Source: Actinomycetes bacterium
GTDB lineage: Bacteria > Actinomycetota > Acidimicrobiia > Acidimicrobiales > Acidimicrobilacustridaceae
Length of the DNA: 32,000 bases
Direction: 5' to 3'
NCBI GenBank assembly: GCA_029782025.1
Contig: JAKOVR010000013.1
Coordinates: forward strand, 4,903-36,902
The translations under genes were made by a program, and so were the position numbers. Below the pieces are notes generated by a model. That model did not search any database. It worked only from the letters and a program-made list of their open reading frames with translations, and had not been told where the DNA came from. This document shows, in pieces, positions 2,331 through 10,540 of this stretch. Positions within the stretch are counted from its first letter, which is position 1. The number at the start of each line of letters is the position of its first letter.

Positions 2331-3500
2331 ATGGGAGCACCGGTCGGGTCGACAACGTCTGCGTCGCCCCCCTCGTCCGTCCTGTCGGCCGGAGACCTCG
2401 ACGCGCTGATCGGCGGCCTCGCCGAGGACGGGTACCGCGTGCTGGGCCCCACCGTGGTCGACGCCGTGATCGACTGGGGGCCGGTGCGTTCGTCCGACGA
2501 CCTCCCGCGGGGCTGGGTCGACGACCAGCGGGCCGGCCGCTACCGCGCCGAGCCGTCCGACGCCGTCCACCCCGACGCCGCCTTCGCCTTCGCCTCACCG
2601 GCGTCGGCCCCGAAGCGGTGGTTCCTCCCTCCCACCGAGCCGCTGTTCCGGGCGACCCGGCGCCCCGGCGGGTCGATCGCCTTCCTGCCCGCTCCCGACC
2701 CGGACCCGGCGGTCGCCCTGGTGGGCGTGCGGGGCTGCGACCTGGCGGCGCTGGCCGTCCTCGACCGGGCCCTGGCCGCCGACCCCGCCTTCCGGCGCCG
2801 CCGTGACGCGGCGTTCGTCGTCGCGGTGGAGTGCGGGCATCCCGCCGACAGCTGCTTCTGCCCCTCGGCCGGCACCGGCCCCGGGATCCCCGACGAGGCG
2901 GCGGCGGCCGCGGGGGCCGACCTCGTGCTCACCGAACTGGTCGACGAGGCCGGCCCGCGCTACCTCGCGCGCCCGGTCTCGGCCGCCGGGGCCGAGCGGG
3001 TGGTCGGGCTCGGTGACCGCCGCCCCGCCACCCCGGCCGACATCGACGGTGCCGCCACCGTGGTCGCCTCGGCCCGGGACGCCATCACCCGCACGCTCCC
3101 CTTCGCCTCCGCCCCTGCCCTCGTCCGCGACGCGCCCGAGGCGGCGGCGTGGGACCAAACCGTCGAGGCCTGCTTGCTGTGCGGCAACTGCACGATGGCC
3201 TGCCCCACTTGTTTCTGCACGTCGGTCCACGACCGCACCGACGTCGCCGGCACGACGGCCGAGCGGTGGCGGGAGTGGGATTCGTGCTTCTCCCTCGCCT
3301 TCAGCGAGCTGCACGGCGGGTCGGTGCGCGAGAGCCCGGTCAGCCGGTACCGCCAGTGGCTCACCCACAAGCTCGGCATGTGGCCCGAGCAGTTCGGTTC
3401 GAGCGGCTGCGTCGGGTGCGGTCGGTGCATCACCTGGTGCCCGGCCGGCATCGACCTGACCCGGCACGTCGCCGCCCTCGCGATGGAGGTGGGGGCGTGA
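2331..3500 (+). CDS. hyhB: Hydrogenase Fe-S subunit, AsrA / sulfhydrogenase-beta-like (two 4Fe-4S ferredoxin-type motifs)
   Basis: ORF 2268..3500. Cys motifs [16 protein letters not shown] and [12 protein letters not shown]. The start is uncertain: ATG 2331 is preferred because codons 2268-2330 look non-coding. The stop overlaps the next start (GTGA at 3497-3500). Confidence 0.8.
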
Positions 3501-3979
3501 AGTCGCTGCCCGAGCTCCTGAGCGAGCAACCGGTCTTCGCCGGGCTGTCCGAGTCCGATCTCGTGTTCCTCGCCGGGTGCTGCGGCCTCCACCACGTTCC
3601 CCACGGCGACGTCGTGTTCCGCGAGGGCGGACCGGCCGACCGGGCCTTCGTCGTGCGGTCCGGCCGTGTGGTCCTCGAGCTCCACGAGCCCGGGCGGGGC
3701 TCGTTCAGCGTCGGCACCGTCGAACCGGGCGAGGTGCTGGGCTGGTCGTGGCTCCACGCCCCGTACCGGTGGCGGACCGACGCCCTGGCGGTCGGGGACT
3801 CGAGCCTGTTCGCCTTCGACGCGGCCTGCCTCCGCCAGAAGCTCGAGGCCGACCCCCGCCTCGGCTACGCCGTCGTGCTACGCATGGCCGAGCTGGCGAC
3901 CGAGCGGCTGCACGCCACCCGGGTGCAGCTCATCGACCTCTACGGTCCCCGCAGCGGCGATCGCGAGGACCGGCGATGA
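3497..3979 (+). CDS. Stand-alone cyclic-nucleotide-binding (CAP effector-like) domain protein, 160 aa, no DNA-binding domain
   Basis: GTG at 3497 is in frame with the tail of ORF 3149..3979. Sequence [27 protein letters not shown]...GDVVFREGGPADRAFVVRSGRVVLEL...GEVLGWSWL...RWRTDALAV resembles a cNMP beta-roll with a G-E...R-T phosphate-binding cassette. Both ends are coupled to neighbours (GTGA and ATGA overlaps). Confidence 0.75.
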   Translation: MKSLPELLSEQPVFAGLSESDLVFLAGCCGLHHVPHGDVVFREGGPADRAFVVRSGRVVLELHEPGRGSFSVGTVEPGEVLGWSWLHAPYRWRTDALAVGDSSLFAFDAACLRQKLEADPRLGYAVVLRMAELATERLHATRVQLIDLYGPRSGDREDRR

Positions 3980-4809
3980 GCGGCTACGACGCCTTGTGGA
4001 CGCCGGTCCTCCACCGCATCACCCGGTGGCGCCGCGACCTCGACGACACGGTGACGTTCGGCCTGGCGCCGGTCGAGGGGGCCGAAGCCTTGGCCCCTCC
4101 CCGTCCCGGGCAGTTCCACATGCTGTGGGTGTACGGCATCGGCGAGGTGCCGATCTCGGTCAGCGGCATCGATCGCGACGGCACCCCCGTGGTGCACACC
4201 GTGCGGGCGGTGGGCCGGGTGACCGAGGCGCTGTGCCGGCTCCAGCCCGGCGACACGGTGGGCGTGCGGGGGCCCTTCGGTTCGGCGTGGCCCGAGGCCC
4301 GCCCCGGTGAGGACCTCCTCGTGGTGGCCGGGGGTCTCGGCCTGGCCCCACTGCGCCCGGTGGTGCACGCCGCCATCGAGGCGCCGGAGCGGTTCGGCTC
4401 CCTCACCGTGGTGATCGGGGCGCGGTCGCCGTCCGCCCTCCTGTTCGAGGAGGAGATCCGGTCGTGGTCGCACGAGGGCGTCGACGTGCGGGTCACGGTC
4501 GACTACGCCGATGCGGGGTGGCGGGGCTCGATCGGCGTCGTCACCCGCCTCCTGCGGGACGCCGTGCGGGATCCGGCCCGCACCGTGGCCCTCGTGTGCG
4601 GGCCCGAGGTCATGATGCGGGCATCGGCTCGGGAGCTGACGTCGATCGGCCTGCCGGGCGCGTCGATCCTGTTGTCGCTGGAGCGCAACATGGAGTGCGC
4701 CGTCGGGCTGTGTGGCCACTGCCAGCTCGGCGCCAAGTTCGTGTGCGTCGACGGGCCGGTGCTGAGCTGGGAGCGGATCGAGCCGCTCCTCGGCATCCGG
4801 GAGGTCTGA
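3976..4809 (+). CDS. hyhG: Hydrogenase FAD/NAD(P)-binding subunit with C-terminal 2Fe-2S motif (AsrB / sulfhydrogenase-gamma / PyrK-like)
   Basis: ATG 3976 lies within ORF 3577..4809. Ferredoxin-reductase-like fold signals include [13 protein letters not shown]-terminal motif [25 protein letters not shown] overlap upstream and TGATG overlap downstream. Confidence 0.85.
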
Positions 4810-5564
4810 TGGCTGCCGGGCCGTCGCTGGCCGTCTGGAAGTTCGCGTCGTGCGACGGCTGCCAGCTGACCCTCCTCGACTGCGAGGACGACCTCCTCGA
4901 GGTGGCCGGGGCGGTGCGGATCTCGTCGTTCCTGGAAGCGTCGAGCGCGGTCGTCGACGGCCCGTACGACATCTCGCTCGTCGAGGGCAGCATCACCACC
5001 GAGGCCGACGCCGCCCGCATCCGTGAGGTGCGCGCCGCGTCGAAGACCCTGGTCACCATCGGGGCCTGCGCCACCGGCGGCGGCGTGCAGGCGCTGCGCA
5101 ACTTCGCCGACGTCGAGGAGTACCTGTCGATCGTCTACGCCCAGCCGCAGTTCATCGACACCCTCGATCGCGTGACCCCGATCGCCGACCACGTCCCCGT
5201 CGACCTCGAGCTCCGGGGCTGCCCCGTGACCCGGGCCCAGCTCCTCGAGGTGCTCGCCGCCCTGCTCGCCGGCCGCCGACCGGTGCTGCCGTCCTCGAGC
5301 GTGTGCGAGGAGTGCAAGCGGGCCGGCAACCCCTGCGTCCTCGTGGCCCACGGCACCCCGTGCCTCGGCCCGGTCACCCACGCCGGCTGCGGCGCCCTGT
5401 GCCCCAGCTACCACCGCGGGTGCTACGGCTGCTTCGGCCCGCACGACTCGGCCCGGCCCGGCCCCCTCGTGCCCCTGCTGCGGGCCGTCGGCTCGTCGGA
5501 CCCCCGCATCGTCGACCTGCTGCGCACCTTCAACGTGCACGACGGATCGGTGGTCTCGCCATGA
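4809..5564 (+). CDS. hyhS: [NiFe]-hydrogenase small (delta) subunit, NuoB-like
   Basis: ATG 4809 lies within ORF 4464..5564. Sequence [30 protein letters not shown]...[17 protein letters not shown]...RGCP, plus C-terminal Cys clusters [12 protein letters not shown] and [11 protein letters not shown]. Confidence 0.9.
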
Positions 5565-6883
5565 CCCACCGGAGCCCTCCGTCGCGCACCGTGCGGGTCG
5601 ACGCCCTCTCCCGGGTGGAGGGGGAGGGCGGGCTCGACGTCCAGATCGAGGACGGTCGGGTCAGCGGGGTGCAGCTGCGCATCTACGAGCCCCCCCGGTT
5701 CTTCGAGGCCTTCCTCCGCGGGCGGCACCACACCGAGCCGCCGGACATCACGGCGCGGATCTGCGGCATCTGCCCCGTCGCCTACCAGATGAGCGCCTGC
5801 CTGGCCATCGAGGACGCCTGCGGGGTGCGGGTCGACGGCCCGCTGCACGAGTTGCGCCGGTTGCTCTACTTCGGCGAGTGGATCGAGAGCCACGGCCTGC
5901 ACGTGTACCTGCTGCACGCCCCGGACTTCATGGGCTACCCGAGCGCCATCGACATGGCGGAGGACCACCCCGACCTGGTGCGGCGGGGCCTGGCCATGAA
6001 GAAGGTCGGCAACGACCTGCTGGAGCTGATCGGGGGCCGGGCCGTCCACCCGGTCAACGTGCGGGTGGGCGGGTTCTACCGTCTCCCCACCGCCGCGGAG
6101 CTGGCGCCGATGCGGGAGCGCCTCTTGGTCGGGCTCGACGCCGCCCTGGAGACGGTGGCGTGGGTGGCGGGCTTCGACTTCCCGGACCTCGAGCACCACC
6201 ACCCCTACGTGGCGCTCGAGCAACCCGACGACTACGCCGTGCTCGGCGGCCGCATCCGCTCCACCGCCGGCCTCGACGTCCCGGTGGCCGACTTCGACCG
6301 GGCCATCGAGGAGACCCAGGTGCCGTGGTCCACGGCGCTGCACGCCCACCTGCTCGACGGCGACCACTACCTGGTGGGGCCGTTGGCCCGCTTCGCCCTC
6401 AACCGGGAGCGGCTCCACCCCGCCGCCCTCGCCGCCGCTGCCACGGCCGGGCTGACCGGGCCGTGTCGCAACCCGTTCCAGAGCATCGTGGTCCGGGCCG
6501 TCGAACTGGTGCACGCCTTCGCCTCGGCCGTCGACGTGATCGACGCCTATGAGCGGCCGGACCGCCCCGCCGTGGACGTGCCGGCTCGGGCCGGTGTCGG
6601 GCACGGCGCCACGGAGGCACCGCGGGGGTTGCTCTACCACCGCTACGAGCTGGCCGACGACGGCACGATCCTCGACGCCCGCATCGTGCCGCCCACCTCC
6701 CAGAACCAGTCGGCCATCGAGCACGACCTGTTCGACTTCATCGACGACCGGCTGGCCGATCACGACGACGTCGCGCTGGCCGCCGGCATCGAGGCGCTGG
6801 TGCGCAGCTACGACCCGTGCATCTCCTGTGCCACCCACTTCCTCGACGTGCGGGTCGACCGGACCGGGAGCGGCGCGCCGTGA
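5561..6883 (+). CDS. hyhL: [NiFe]-hydrogenase large (alpha) subunit
   Basis: ATG 5561 (ATGA overlap) lies within ORF 5303..6883. N-terminus [18 protein letters not shown]-terminal Ni-site motif [10 protein letters not shown], and C-terminal DPCISCATH followed by a 14-aa extension (a protease substrate). Confidence 0.93.
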
Positions 6884-7431
6884 GCCCGGGCGACGATCGC
6901 CGGGACCGCCGGTCCCTCGTGATCGGCGTCGGGAACGACGCCCGGGGCGACGACGGCGCCGGTCTCGCCGTCGCCGGGGCGGTGCGGGCCGCGCTCGGCG
7001 CCGCTGGGTCCGGAGGGCCGGACGCCGACGTGCGCGAGCTCGACGGGGAGGCGGCCCGGCTCATCGAGGCCTGGGACGGACGGGCGCTCGTGGTGGTCGT
7101 CGACGCCGCCACCCCGTCGGCGGCAGGAGGGCCGGCCGGCACGGTGCACCGCGTCGAGGTGGGCGACGAGCCGCTGCCGGCCTGGGTCGGCGGGCGCGGC
7201 ACCCACGACGTCGGGGTGGCCGACGCCATCCGGCTGGCCCGGGTGCTGGACCGACTGCCCGACCGGCTGGTGCTGGTCACCGTCGCCGGCGCCTCCTTCG
7301 CCGAGGGCGATGGTCTGTCGGCCGAAGTGGCGGGCGCCCTCCCGGCCGCGGTCGACGCCGTGTTGGCCGAGCTCGGTCCCCGGCCCGCGGAAGGGAGGTC
7401 GCCGTGTGCATCCACGTCATCGGCGAGGTGA
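6880..7431 (+). CDS. Hydrogenase maturation endopeptidase (HyaD/HybD/FrhD family)
   Basis: GTG 6880 (GTGA overlap with hyhL) is in frame with ORF 6817..7431. LVIGVGNDARGDDGAGLAV is the typical N-terminal motif. Sits immediately after the large subunit. Confidence 0.85.
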   Translation: MSPGDDRRDRRSLVIGVGNDARGDDGAGLAVAGAVRAALGAAGSGGPDADVRELDGEAARLIEAWDGRALVVVVDAATPSAAGGPAGTVHRVEVGDEPLPAWVGGRGTHDVGVADAIRLARVLDRLPDRLVLVTVAGASFAEGDGLSAEVAGALPAAVDAVLAELGPRPAEGRSPCASTSSAR

Positions 7432-7652
7432 CCGGCGTCGACGCCGGCGGGGGGACGGCGACGATCGTCATCGACGGCCGGGACGTGCCCGTGTCGCTGC
7501 TGGCGCTCGACGGGGTGCCCTCGATCGGCGACTGGGCCGTCGCCCACCAGGGTTACGTGCTCGAGGTGCTGCGCCCCGACGAGGCCGCGGCCGTGCTGGC
7601 CGCCCGCGCCGGGCTCGACGCGTGGAGAGAACCGGAGGAGGAGGGATCATGA
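7404..7652 (+). CDS. hypC: HypC/HupF-family hydrogenase assembly chaperone-like protein (82 aa)
   Basis: GTG 7404 is preceded by AAGGGAGG (7391-7398). The N-terminus is (M)CIHVIGEV, with the invariant Cys2. Size and position fit HypC. It overlaps the protease gene by 28 nt. Confidence 0.7.
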   Translation: MCIHVIGEVTGVDAGGGTATIVIDGRDVPVSLLALDGVPSIGDWAVAHQGYVLEVLRPDEAAAVLAARAGLDAWREPEEEGS

Positions 7653-8635
7653 CCACGAGGAACCGGGGCCTGCTGTTGGCCCTCGCCGCCGCGGCGATCA
7701 GCGGCGTGTCGGTGTTCGTCAACGGCTACGGCGTCAAGCAGTACCCCGACGCCACCGCCTACACCACGGCCAAGAACGCGGTCGCGGCGCTGATCGTCGT
7801 CGTCGCCGCCGTGGCCGCCGCCCGCCGCAGGGCGGCCGGGCGCGGAGCAGCCGCGGCAACCGCGGCCGTGGCCCCGACGGCCCCCGAGGCGTCGCCGGCG
7901 GCGCGCCGGCTCGGCCTCGTGGTGGTCGCCGTCGTGGGCGGCAGCACGGCCTTCGTGCTCTTCTTCGAGGGCCTGGCCCGGTCCTCGGCCAAGGACGCCG
8001 CCTTCATCCACAAGACCCTCGTCGTGTGGGTCGCCGTCCTCGGGGCCACGATCCTGCGCGAGCGGGTCGGGGCCCTGCACGTCGCCGCGGTGGCCGTCCT
8101 CGTCTCCGGGCAGGCGCTCCTCGGCGTCCGCCTCGGGGCCATCGGGGTGGGGAGCGGCGAGGCGATGATCCTGGCGGCGACGGTGCTGTGGGCCGTCGAG
8201 GTGGTGGTGGCCAAGCGGCTGCTGGCCTCGGTGCCCCCCACCACGGTGGCGGTGGCCCGCATGGGGGGAGGGGCCCTGCTGTTGCTCGGCCTCCTCGCCG
8301 TCCGAGGCGATCTCGGCCACCTCGTGCCGACCGATCGCGGCGCGCTGGTCTGGGTCGGGGTCACCGGCGCGCTGCTCGGCGCCTATGTGCTGACGTGGTT
8401 CCATGCCCTGGCCGCGGCGCCGGCGGTCGACGTCACCGCGCTGCTCGTCGCCGGCGCGGTCGTGACCGCCCTGCTCGACGCCGCCGTGAAGGGGGCGGCG
8501 CTCGGGCCCCTGGCCGGCGGGCTCGCCCTGATCGTGGCCGGCACCGCGGTGGCGCTGCGGGCGGCGCGGCCGACGTCGGCGCCCCGCGTGCCCCGGACCA
8601 CGGCGCCGTCGGCCGCGGGGGCGACGGCGCCGTGA
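7649..8635 (+). CDS. EamA/DMT-superfamily permease (about 10 TM helices)
   Basis: ATG 7649 (ATGA overlap with hypC-like) lies within ORF 7310..8635. The protein is hydrophobic, Ala/Val/Leu/Gly-rich with two repeated halves. N-terminus MTTRNRGLLLALAAAAISGVSVFVNGYGVKQY. Confidence 0.75.
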   Translation: MTTRNRGLLLALAAAAISGVSVFVNGYGVKQYPDATAYTTAKNAVAALIVVVAAVAAARRRAAGRGAAAATAAVAPTAPEASPAARRLGLVVVAVVGGSTAFVLFFEGLARSSAKDAAFIHKTLVVWVAVLGATILRERVGALHVAAVAVLVSGQALLGVRLGAIGVGSGEAMILAATVLWAVEVVVAKRLLASVPPTTVAVARMGGGALLLLGLLAVRGDLGHLVPTDRGALVWVGVTGALLGAYVLTWFHALAAAPAVDVTALLVAGAVVTALLDAAVKGAALGPLAGGLALIVAGTAVALRAARPTSAPRVPRTTAPSAAGATAP

Positions 8636-9426
8636 CCGCCACCGGGCTCCGGCCCCGGTCCGTCGCCGGGCCGACCCTGTTCGCCCGCTTCGCCTACCCC
8701 CCGAACGAGCGGGGGCTCTGCGGTCCCGACGACAGCGCCGCGCTGCTCGGCTACGCCGCCAGCGGCGTCGTCGACGGGGGGCTGCGGGAACTGGCCGCCG
8801 CCTTCGACGGGGCGTGGCCGTACCTGGAGCTGATCGCCGGCAGCAACGGGCGGCCCGACCCGCTCGACCCCGCCGTGGTCGAGGCCTACTGGATCGGCAA
8901 CGGCCTCTCCGACCGTGCCGCCGGCGCGCCGCTGGCCCGCACCGTCGTCGACCGGTTCCGTCCCCGGGCCGGCCGCCACACCGAGCACGTCCTCGACGCC
9001 GTGCGGGCCGGGCTACGGCCCACCCACTGCTTCCACGTCTTCGGCGTGTACCCCTGGGTGGGCCTCCTGAGGGACGGGCGGGCGCAGCCGGCGGTCGAGG
9101 TGCTCGACTGCTGCCGCATCCGCTGGGGGGAGGTGGTCGACCTCGACGGCGACTCGGCGGTGGTCCGCACTCGTCGCCTGGCCATGGGGCCCGACGGACG
9201 GACGGTCGCCCTCGGGCTCCCGGCCGACGAGGTGGTGCGGGTGGGGCGGGCGGGCGAGATGCTCGGCGGCCCGGTGGCGCCGGGTCGGCGCGTCGCGTTG
9301 CACTGGGACTGGGTCTGCCAGTCGTTGACCGACGCCCAGGTCCGCCGGCTGGCCCTCGACCTCGAGGCCTGTCTCGCTGTGGCCAACGCTCCGACCCTCA
9401 GCGGATCGTCGGCTCCGCGTGGGTGA
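8632..9426 (+). CDS. Conserved-looking hypothetical protein, Cys-rich, last gene of the hydrogenase operon
   Basis: GTG 8632 (GTGA overlap) lies within ORF 8026..9426. Motifs FARFAYPPNERGLCGPDD, HCFHVFGVYPW, LDCCRIRWGEV and WDWVCQSL. High GC3 throughout. I cannot assign a family with confidence; it may be an actinobacterial DUF. Confidence 0.65.
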   Translation: MTATGLRPRSVAGPTLFARFAYPPNERGLCGPDDSAALLGYAASGVVDGGLRELAAAFDGAWPYLELIAGSNGRPDPLDPAVVEAYWIGNGLSDRAAGAPLARTVVDRFRPRAGRHTEHVLDAVRAGLRPTHCFHVFGVYPWVGLLRDGRAQPAVEVLDCCRIRWGEVVDLDGDSAVVRTRRLAMGPDGRTVALGLPADEVVRVGRAGEMLGGPVAPGRRVALHWDWVCQSLTDAQVRRLALDLEACLAVANAPTLSGSSAPRG

Positions 9427-10540
9427 TGGCGCCCACCAGCAGGGCCCGGTTGAGGTCCGTGGCCGTCAGGATGCCGACGAGCTCGTCGCCGTCGAGCACG
9501 AGGGCCCGGGTGCCGCCGCTGGCGAGCAGGCGGGGCAGGAGGTCCACCACCGGCTCGGCCGGTTCGGCGCACACGACCCGGTCGATCGGCACGGCCACGG
9601 ACCCGATCGCCACCTGGCCGCGATCCCGGGGCGGCACGTCGCGCACCTGGTCGAGCGTCACCAGACCGATCGGACGGCCGTCCTCGTCCACCACCGGGTA
9701 GGCGGTGGCCCGGTTGCCGAGGACGTAGCGCTCCACGAACTCCTCGACGGGCACGCCGGCCGGGGCGGTGAGCACCGGCGACGACATGATCGCCGCGACG
9801 CGGATGCCGGCCAGCAGCTCCTGCTCGGCGACGACCTCGGCCTCGGCCCGGCTGGCCTGCAGCACGAACCAGCCGATGAAGGCCAGCCACAGGCCGCCCA
9901 GCGTCCCCGTCGACAGGAACTCGAGGAGGCCGAACGCGATCAGCACCGTCGACAGCATCCGGCTCACCGCTGCGGCCTGCTCGGTGGCCTTCACATGGTC
10001 GTCGTTGCGCATCCACAGCGCCGCCCGCAGCACCCGGCCACCGTCGAGCGGGAAGGCCGGGAGCAGGTTGAACAGGCCCAGCATCACGTTCATCGCCGCC
10101 AGCCACGCCAGGCCGTCGAGGACGAGGTCCGGCGCCCCGAGGGCGCTGGCGCCCACGGCGAGGGCGCCAGCCGCCGCCCCGAGGGCGATGCTCACGGCCG
10201 GGCCCACCACGGCGATCCGCAGCTCGTCCCGGCCCGACGACGACTCCCGTTCCAGCTTCGACACGCCGCCGAAGAGCCACAGCGTGATCGTCTTGACCTC
10301 CACGCCCAGGCGGCGGGCCACCAGCGAGTGGCCGAACTCGTGGGCCAGCAGCGACGCGAAGAACGCCGGGGTGACGGCGAGGGCCACGGCCCAGTAGGCC
10401 CAGGCCGGCTGGTCGGGCGAGTTCGCGGGCAGGATCGCCGCGGCCAGCGACCAGGCGATCAGGGCCACGGTCACGAGCAGGCTCCAGTTGGCCGTGATCT
10501 CGATGCCGAGGAGCCGTCCGATGCGGAAGGAGTCCTTCAT
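9398..10540 (-). CDS. Site-2-protease-type M50 zinc metalloprotease with C-terminal CBS pair
   Basis: ORF 9398..10540. HEFGHSLVARRLG (HExxH) and FNLLPAFPLDGGR (NxxPxxxLDG). The C-terminal half is CBS-like. SD GGAAAGGA lies upstream of the ATG. The 3' end overlaps the convergent gene by 29 nt. Confidence 0.88.
   Translation of the reverse strand: MKDSFRIGRLLGIEITANWSLLVTVALIAWSLAAAILPANSPDQPAWAYWAVALAVTPAFFASLLAHEFGHSLVARRLGVEVKTITLWLFGGVSKLERESSSGRDELRIAVVGPAVSIALGAAAGALAVGASALGAPDLVLDGLAWLAAMNVMLGLFNLLPAFPLDGGRVLRAALWMRNDDHVKATEQAAAVSRMLSTVLIAFGLLEFLSTGTLGGLWLAFIGWFVLQASRAEAEVVAEQELLAGIRVAAIMSSPVLTAPAGVPVEEFVERYVLGNRATAYPVVDEDGRPIGLVTLDQVRDVPPRDRGQVAIGSVAVPIDRVVCAEPAEPVVDLLPRLLASGGTRALVLDGDELVGILTATDLNRALLVGAITHAEPTIR

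Follow-up and report, generated by a model that had tools for sequence, protein, structure and literature searches.

The present analysis concerns the last three genes of a [NiFe]-hydrogenase operon located in a 32,000-nt stretch of actinobacterial DNA (contig JAKOVR010000013.1, positions 4903 to 36,902), which is referred to below as the window and which provides the numbering of all window coordinates. The data support the conclusion that positions 7404–9426 contain a translationally coupled three-gene accessory module, in which hypC, an EamA permease gene of the drug/metabolite transporter (DMT) superfamily, and a gene encoding a DUF6390 protein close an operon of the group-3b type. On these data, the module is best described as a variant HypC-type maturation machinery that has a DMT permease coupled to it. 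It may serve the assembly or acquisition of the hydrogenase metal center, and stand in for the missing Hyp proteins; judging from sequence comparison, we consider the chances for and against this role to be about equal.

The HypC-EamA-DUF6390 module and its genomic neighborhoods

Because the G+C content of the window is 74%, the genes were called using third-position GC together with Pfam matches. On the forward strand, hypC (7404–7652; PF01455, E 3.7e-9) is preceded by a GGGAGG Shine–Dalgarno sequence and encodes a protein with the N-terminus M-C-I-H-V. Its stop codon overlaps the start of the EamA gene (7649–8635; 328 aa) in an ATGA at 7649–7652, and the EamA stop codon overlaps the start of the DUF6390 gene (8632–9426; 264 aa) in a GTGA at 8632–8635. 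The ten-helix DMT permease, the 264-aa protein and the two overlaps had already been described in a first-pass annotation of this DNA, and the sequence and the third-position GC frames agree with that description. The permease matches PF00892 in two repeats (E 3e-23) and scores 83 bits, where the cut-off is 28.2; a Kyte–Doolittle scan placed about 10 hydrophobic segments in the span from residue 6 to residue 306. The same 4-nt overlaps were found again in the related loci L031, L115, and L116.

The DUF6390 family is large, with more than 3600 matches among 8000 candidates scored (90%-identity clusters) and 1072 representatives in 50%-identity clusters. The neighborhoods of its genes were compared in 96 loci with flanks, which were annotated by tblastn with Pfam-labeled reference proteins. 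The data showed that the gene order of the window, in which the Fer4_22, cyclic nucleotide (cNMP)-binding, NAD(P)/FAD-binding, small-subunit, large-subunit, and HycI genes are followed by HypC, EamA, and DUF6390, occurs in about 26 further loci, including L031 and L116, which belong to Acidimicrobiia, Nocardioides, Phycicoccus, Hamadaea, Demequina, Gaiellaceae, and others. A lack of conservation next to hydrogenase genes had been named as a result that would refute the original proposal, but the pair together with hypC ends the same 3b-type operon in several actinobacterial classes. EamA was restricted to 3b-type loci, and its orthologue group was strictly paired with DUF6390 in the loci compared; many proteins are close homologues (at least 50% identity) of the window EamA, and the two contexts sampled were both HypC-EamA-DUF6390. 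In Kribbella shirazensis (L115) the three genes, with their 4-nt overlaps, form a separate unit away from the rearranged structural genes. The neighbors of this unit (L115, 1–8640) encode a GAF histidine kinase, a response regulator, universal stress proteins, nitroreductase-like proteins, and a cation P-type ATPase, surroundings of a DosR/hypoxia type that resemble those noted for the window.

The second main architecture consists of group-1h hydrogenase clusters, defined by the large-subunit motifs TSRICGICGDNHAT and SFDPCLPCGVH, in which DUF6390 adjoins hypC either on the same strand or convergently. In about 29 loci of the Micrococcaceae type the DUF6390 gene is divergent from an importer operon of Peripla_BP_2, FecCD, and ATPase genes, while in about 18 other group-1h loci it adjoins an importer made of SBP_bac_11, a double permease, and a TOBE-ATPase. 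One of the loci, L046, has the order HypC-DUF6390-SBP-permease-ATPase-HypA-HypB. The nearest matches of the ATP-binding cassette (ABC) permeases include BtuC-like permeases. Overall, HypC was located within 1.5 kb of DUF6390 in 66 of the 96 loci, and a transporter adjoined DUF6390 in 73 of them. In the protein tree of DUF6390, the members linked to 1h enzymes are a derived clade, while those linked to EamA make up a basal grade. This tree requires only three changes of hydrogenase type; DUF6390 has therefore long traveled together with its hydrogenase. Hence, these data support the conclusion that DUF6390 is a neighbor of hypC in two hydrogenase classes that are unrelated to each other, and that it diversified along with them.

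Only one small group of Pseudonocardiales loci (L096, L097, and L103) contained no hydrogenase gene within 10 kb of DUF6390. In the tight clade formed by these loci and L068, likewise noted for the absence of hydrogenase genes over this distance, DUF6390 adjoins genes for a class-V, cysteine-desulfurase-like aminotransferase and for a short-chain dehydrogenase/reductase; the L103 genome has HypD, HypE, and HypF (HypDEF).

Domains of DUF6390, the permease, and the fusion proteins

The DUF6390 protein of the window matches PF19927 with 269 bits against a cut-off of 25 (E 4.7e-80), over profile positions 3–239 of 244. AlphaFold2, using a 48-sequence alignment, gave a model with a predicted local distance difference test score (pLDDT) of 90.4 and a predicted TM-score (pTM) of 0.89, in which a helical domain (residues 13–161) is followed by a five-strand beta domain (163–231) and a last helix (234–251). 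Together with the conservation pattern, the model defines an N-terminal all-helical domain of residues 1–160 (8632–9111), while the comparisons described below define residues 161–251 (9112–9384) as a HypC-like domain with the oligonucleotide/oligosaccharide-binding (OB) fold and a C-terminal helix. The data thus support the description of DUF6390 as a cytoplasmic two-domain protein.

The top Foldseek match of the model in the PDB was HypC of Thermococcus kodakarensis (2z1c_B; target-normalized TM-score, TMt, 0.63; E 0.025), followed in the ranking by ribosomal S17-type OB folds. Using hhalign, a profile of the C-terminal 110 residues of DUF6390 (96 sequences) was compared with a profile of 71 HypC proteins from the same loci, which gave a probability of 93.7% (E 1.9e-7), while the N-domain used as a control gave 0.1%. 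In the confident block of this alignment the His224 motif of DUF6390 was aligned with the conserved HypC histidine, the last-strand residue that is His51 in Escherichia coli HypC. The first-pass annotation had also pointed to six cysteines in conserved-looking contexts. All six are present, at positions 30, 133, 160, 161, 229, and 247, but the only ones kept without exception in 48 homologues are Cys30, Cys161, and Cys229. His132, His135, and His224 are likewise invariant, while Cys133 (in HCFHVF) and Cys160 (in LDCCRIRW) are not conserved. The codons of the invariant residues of the N-terminal domain are located at 8719–8721 (Cys30), 9025–9027 (His132), and 9034–9036 (His135), and those of the C-terminal domain at 9112–9114 (Cys161), 9301–9303 (His224), and 9316–9318 (Cys229).

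The helical domain reached a pLDDT of 77.8 when folded alone, and its comparison with PDB structures gave no match better than E 7. The whole-family profile gave only chance matches to PDB sequences, with no sequence relative of the helical domain among them. A haem-oxygenase-like identity was considered for this domain and rejected, because fold support for it was absent. The protein showed no match to HypD (PF01924), as PF19927 was the sole family detected at E ≤ 0.1 and the predicted fold of the N-terminal domain is all-helical.

In the permease, PF00892 was likewise the sole family at E ≤ 0.1, with no match to NiCoT/NicO or HupE/UreJ. The conserved residues in its helices are Asn, Lys, Glu, Arg, and Asp, and conserved Cys or His residues, which would be expected of a soft-metal site, are absent. 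DMT/EamA proteins are typically metabolite carriers, and this, together with the absence of conserved Cys and His, would agree with an EamA protein that exports a metabolite tied to H2 or redox metabolism, with DUF6390 unrelated to hydrogenase assembly. Such an explanation is very improbable, since the EamA group is strictly paired with DUF6390 and hypC, fusions included, and since other lineages have binding-protein-dependent ABC systems, which are importers, in the place of EamA.

Among the cluster representatives, DUF6390 was found fused to HypC (P0116 and P0261) and to EamA (P0251 and P0253), as well as to four DNA-binding domains, GntR, PadR, XRE, and MarR. Both termini of ten-helix DMT proteins are cytoplasmic; therefore, in the EamA-DUF6390 fusions the DUF6390 part lies on the cytoplasmic side of the permease. 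The GntR-DUF6390 fusion is real, as it was found in eight clusters of 61–85% identity. Its gene is located after hypC, as the first gene of an SBP_bac_11/double-permease/TOBE-ATPase operon inside hydrogenase clusters (L117, 7210–11,893; L118, 1468–6119). The fusions to four unrelated DNA-binding domains, the conservation of the GntR fusion at the head of a transporter operon, and the control region shared by DUF6390 and the divergent ABC operon in Arthrobacter-type loci could all be explained if DUF6390 were a sensor of a ligand or metal, which regulates the adjacent transporter or the expression of the hydrogenase, rather than a cofactor carrier. We consider this improbable, because most members of the family, including that of the window, have no DNA-binding domain, and the translational coupling of the window DUF6390 to hypC and the permease is unlike the placement of a regulator. 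The fusions to HypC and to the permease suggest instead a physical hand-over, and a pure sensor would leave the link with the loss of HypDEF, described below, unexplained.

Hyp proteins missing from carrier genomes

The source genome of the window is 95.7% complete in 219 contigs, and it contains one [NiFe] hydrogenase and one DUF6390 gene. The searches of this genome detected no HypD, HypA, or HypF match, no HypE above threshold, and, using tblastn, no HypB homologue. They also detected no homologue of the accessory proteins of 1h clusters, no DUF5947 or DUF6084, and no radical-SAM protein HydG, which was sought as a possible alternative source of cyanide and CO.

The same pattern was observed in other carriers of DUF6390. 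An even sample of the phylum, with 301 genomes, contained 14 with DUF6390, each of which also had a large subunit, and 159 with HypD. HypD was absent from six of the 14 carriers, which belong to six families and include a one-contig genome (G067), and in the five of them other than the source genome HypE and HypF were likewise absent. Among the other genomes of this sample with a strong large-subunit match, hand-compared lists showed the absence of HypD in only three, all fragmented. A further 50 carrier genomes were reached via named loci. HypD, HypE, and HypF were all missing from 46 of them and all present in the remaining four. The 46 include Arthrobacter globiformis NBRC 12137, a complete Pseudarthrobacter genome, Nocardioides aquiterrae, Demequina pelophila, and Kribbella alba. 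Culturable soil bacteria, including members of Arthrobacter, Pseudarthrobacter, Nocardioides, and Kribbella, encode HypC and DUF6390 together with an intact hydrogenase of group 1h or 3b, and no HypD, HypE, or HypF.

These absences could in principle be artifacts of assembly gaps or search misses, or the hydrogenases could be decaying relics. Many of the genomes are metagenome-assembled, and hyp genes are usually clustered, so that one gap might be enough to conceal the whole set. Nevertheless, we regard this explanation as highly unlikely, because the same absence was seen in the one-contig genome, in the complete Pseudarthrobacter genome, and in several type-strain assemblies, and because the same searches found HypD, HypE, and HypF at E values of about 1e-150 in positive genomes. 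Decay is contradicted by the intact and conserved large-subunit motifs, protease, and HypC; in all of these loci, the large subunit still has its four Ni-Fe cysteines as well as a cleavable tail.

The genomes with 3b-type operons were also compared for HypB and HypA, which were present in none and in five of the 26, respectively. HypA was found in each of the three genomes with an EamA-less operon and, in a short form, in two Gaiellaceae. The pattern is thus complementary, with the EamA-less operons (L045, L086, and L089) found in HypA-bearing genomes, and HypA absent from 21 of the 23 EamA genomes. The fact that carriers of the EamA type are mostly without HypA and HypB would fit a role of EamA in nickel supply. 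The first-pass annotation had offered two functions for the pair, a module for metal or cofactor supply or maturation, and an export route for a metabolite. The HypC-like domain, the carriers without HypD, HypE, and HypF, and the EamA carriers mostly without HypA and HypB point to the former, and favor maturation or metal supply over the latter, although export could still apply to EamA taken alone.

If the module does act in the assembly of the metal center, DUF6390 together with HypC could be a carrier or scaffold for the iron part of the active site, the usual role of HypD. Its loading, with a metal or with a precursor that bears the ligands, would take place where the permease faces the cytoplasm, and EamA would provide what HypA, HypB, and a nickel or iron transporter provide elsewhere. 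Extended to the phylum, this proposal would mean that many [NiFe]-hydrogenases of Actinomycetota are matured without HypD, HypE, and HypF, and in the EamA lineages also without HypA and HypB, with DUF6390 as the scaffold partner of HypC and a dedicated EamA or ABC importer bringing the metal or the ligand-bearing precursor. Such a second route to the NiFe(CN)2CO center is a tentative proposal, to which we give somewhat less than an even chance.

Several observations weigh against the proposed role in assembly. The main gap concerns the cyanide and CO ligands, for which no source was identified, and with 219 contigs one gap could hide a hyp cluster in the source genome. HypC has an essential Cys at position 2 and requires a free N-terminus; the corresponding Cys of DUF6390 is internal (residue 161), and it was matched with HypC Cys2 solely in the extended, low-confidence alignment. 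PF01455 was not matched by the C-terminal 111 aa of DUF6390 even at E ≤ 10. Because this family was not reached and the Cys is internal, the C-terminal domain is described here as HypC-like and not as a member of the HypC family. HypDEF are present in 12 carriers (eight in the phylum sample and four of the 50), so DUF6390 is not simply an alternative to HypD, and one genus has the gene order hypC-hypD-DUF6390. About a quarter of the 96 loci have no adjacent transporter, and the ABC binding proteins only weakly resemble binders of Fe3+, 2-aminoethylphosphonate, or pyridoxal phosphate, or uncharacterized Peripla_BP_2 proteins. To these are added the lack of conserved Cys and His in EamA, and the fusions of DUF6390 to helix–turn–helix domains, which fit a sensor role equally well.

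Some of these observations would also be expected if DUF6390 were an auxiliary HypC-type chaperone, whose task might be to buffer iron or, like HupF or HoxL, to hold or protect the large subunit, while unrecognized, nonhomologous enzymes encoded elsewhere replace HypD, HypE, and HypF, and the transporters are ordinary suppliers of iron or nickel. Its HypC-like domain, its coexistence with HypDEF, its position right after hypC-hypD in one genus, and the loci without an adjacent transporter are consistent with this explanation, as is the presence of NicO in some loci; metal transporters of their own are common in hydrogenase clusters. On the other hand, the source genome is devoid of the other hydrogenase accessory genes sought (HypA/B, DUF5947, DUF6084, and HydG), and the bias toward loss of HypDEF among the carriers (46 of 50) is left unexplained, so that an auxiliary chaperone appears rather unlikely.

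Some DUF6390 genes of HypD/E/F-bearing genomes look decayed. In G146 (C20:761–1480, L028) the gene has an internal TGA stop codon, and in G231 (C1:2956004–2956123, L029) it is a 40-residue remnant directly after hypD; long DUF6390 branches were seen for L017, L022, and L025, which have the HypDEF context. A strict rule, by which a transporter would be present if and only if HypDEF is absent, was considered and rejected, because L067 has both, and L049 and L059 have neither.

To our knowledge, HypC, HypD, HypE, and HypF are regarded as a universal requirement for building the Fe(CN)2CO moiety of [NiFe]-hydrogenases. If the HypDEF-less enzymes are active, the supply of their cyanide and CO ligands must use another, undescribed route. 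This question bears on how oxidizers of atmospheric H2 build their enzymes and on how few genes suffice to produce a hydrogenase in a foreign host. It also concerns annotation pipelines in which a genome is scored for hydrogenase maturation according to whether it has Hyp genes.

The hydrogenase operon and comparison with known systems

The module ends a forward-strand operon of nine genes, which spans positions from about 2331 to 9426. The first gene (2331–3500; PF17179, E 2e-32) encodes the 4Fe-4S (Fer4_22) subunit of a 3b-type hydrogenase; its start, placed by alignment with the L031 orthologue, is uncertain within 2268–2379. The next gene encodes a small protein with a cNMP-binding domain (3497–3979; PF00027, E 1.5e-11), which is kept between the Fe-S and flavoprotein subunit genes in nearly all 3b-type loci (e.g., L031, 4821–5288), while in L106 it is relocated directly 3′ of DUF6390. 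It is followed by genes for the NAD(P)/FAD-binding subunit with an Fe-S domain (3976–4809; PF00175, PF10418), the hydrogenase small subunit (4806–5564; PF01058, E 3.5e-23), the [NiFe] large subunit (5561–6883; PF00374), and a HycI-type maturation endopeptidase (6880–7431; PF01750, E 6e-7). The large subunit has intact RICGIC...DPCISCATH motifs, which contain the four Ni-Fe cysteines (RxCGxC ... DPCxxC), and a cleavable C-terminal tail. In its L1 motif (5756–5785) a Tyr replaces the usual His. The same replacement was seen in all 27 loci of this operon type, the window included (e.g., L031, L081, and L092), so it is a trait of the hydrogenase lineage and not a local mutation; the His was present only in L027, whose large subunit is different. 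Outside the module, a convergent gene on the reverse strand encodes an M50-CBS protease (9398–10,540; PF02163, PF00571), and its 3′ end overlaps that of the DUF6390 gene by 29 nt (9398–9426). This overlap is local, because in L031 the M50-CBS gene is instead upstream of the operon.

In the literature searched, the term DUF6390 was absent, and nothing relevant was found on Arthrobacter hyp genes or on hydrogenases without hypD. A description of 3b-related enzymes of the Candidate Phyla Radiation reports only a hypC-like family near them, and not the module (Jaffe et al. 2020).

Among known maturation proteins, the C-terminal third of DUF6390 is most directly comparable to the chaperones HypC, HybG, HupF, and HoxL (PF01455; 2z1c), with which it is predicted to share the OB-fold barrel and the helix. 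It has in common with them the His motif pGD-V-L-H-x-G/W-x-x-x-x-L and a Cys just ahead of the first strand, and its gene adjoins a true hypC. It differs in that a helical domain of 160 aa, which has one invariant Cys and two invariant His residues of its own, comes before this Cys, and in that DUF6390 is found alongside HypC rather than replacing it. HypD (PF01924), the Fe-S scaffold partner of HypC, is similar to DUF6390 in the position of its gene after hypC in many loci and in its richness in Cys and His. This likeness, including the presence of DUF6390 in HypD-less genomes, concerns a possible role and not family membership, because DUF6390 has neither sequence nor fold similarity to HypD, and lacks the CGxHxH and GPGCPVC motifs and the Fe-S cysteine set. 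The permease resembles the hydrogenase-linked nickel transporters NiCoT/HoxN/NicO, HupE/UreJ, and NikABCDE in being a membrane transporter encoded within a hydrogenase operon. Unlike them, it belongs to the DMT superfamily, has no conserved His/Cys metal motif, and is fused to DUF6390 in some lineages. Finally, the operon as a whole has the same structural genes and protease as the actinobacterial group 3b operons (hyhBGSL), which in a 2024 survey of Frankia hydrogenases are represented by a synton-4 given as hyhGB-hupSLD only (PMC11879354). In contrast to these published accounts, the operon of the window is without hypABDEF, contains the cNMP-binding gene, and ends with the HypC-EamA-DUF6390 tail.

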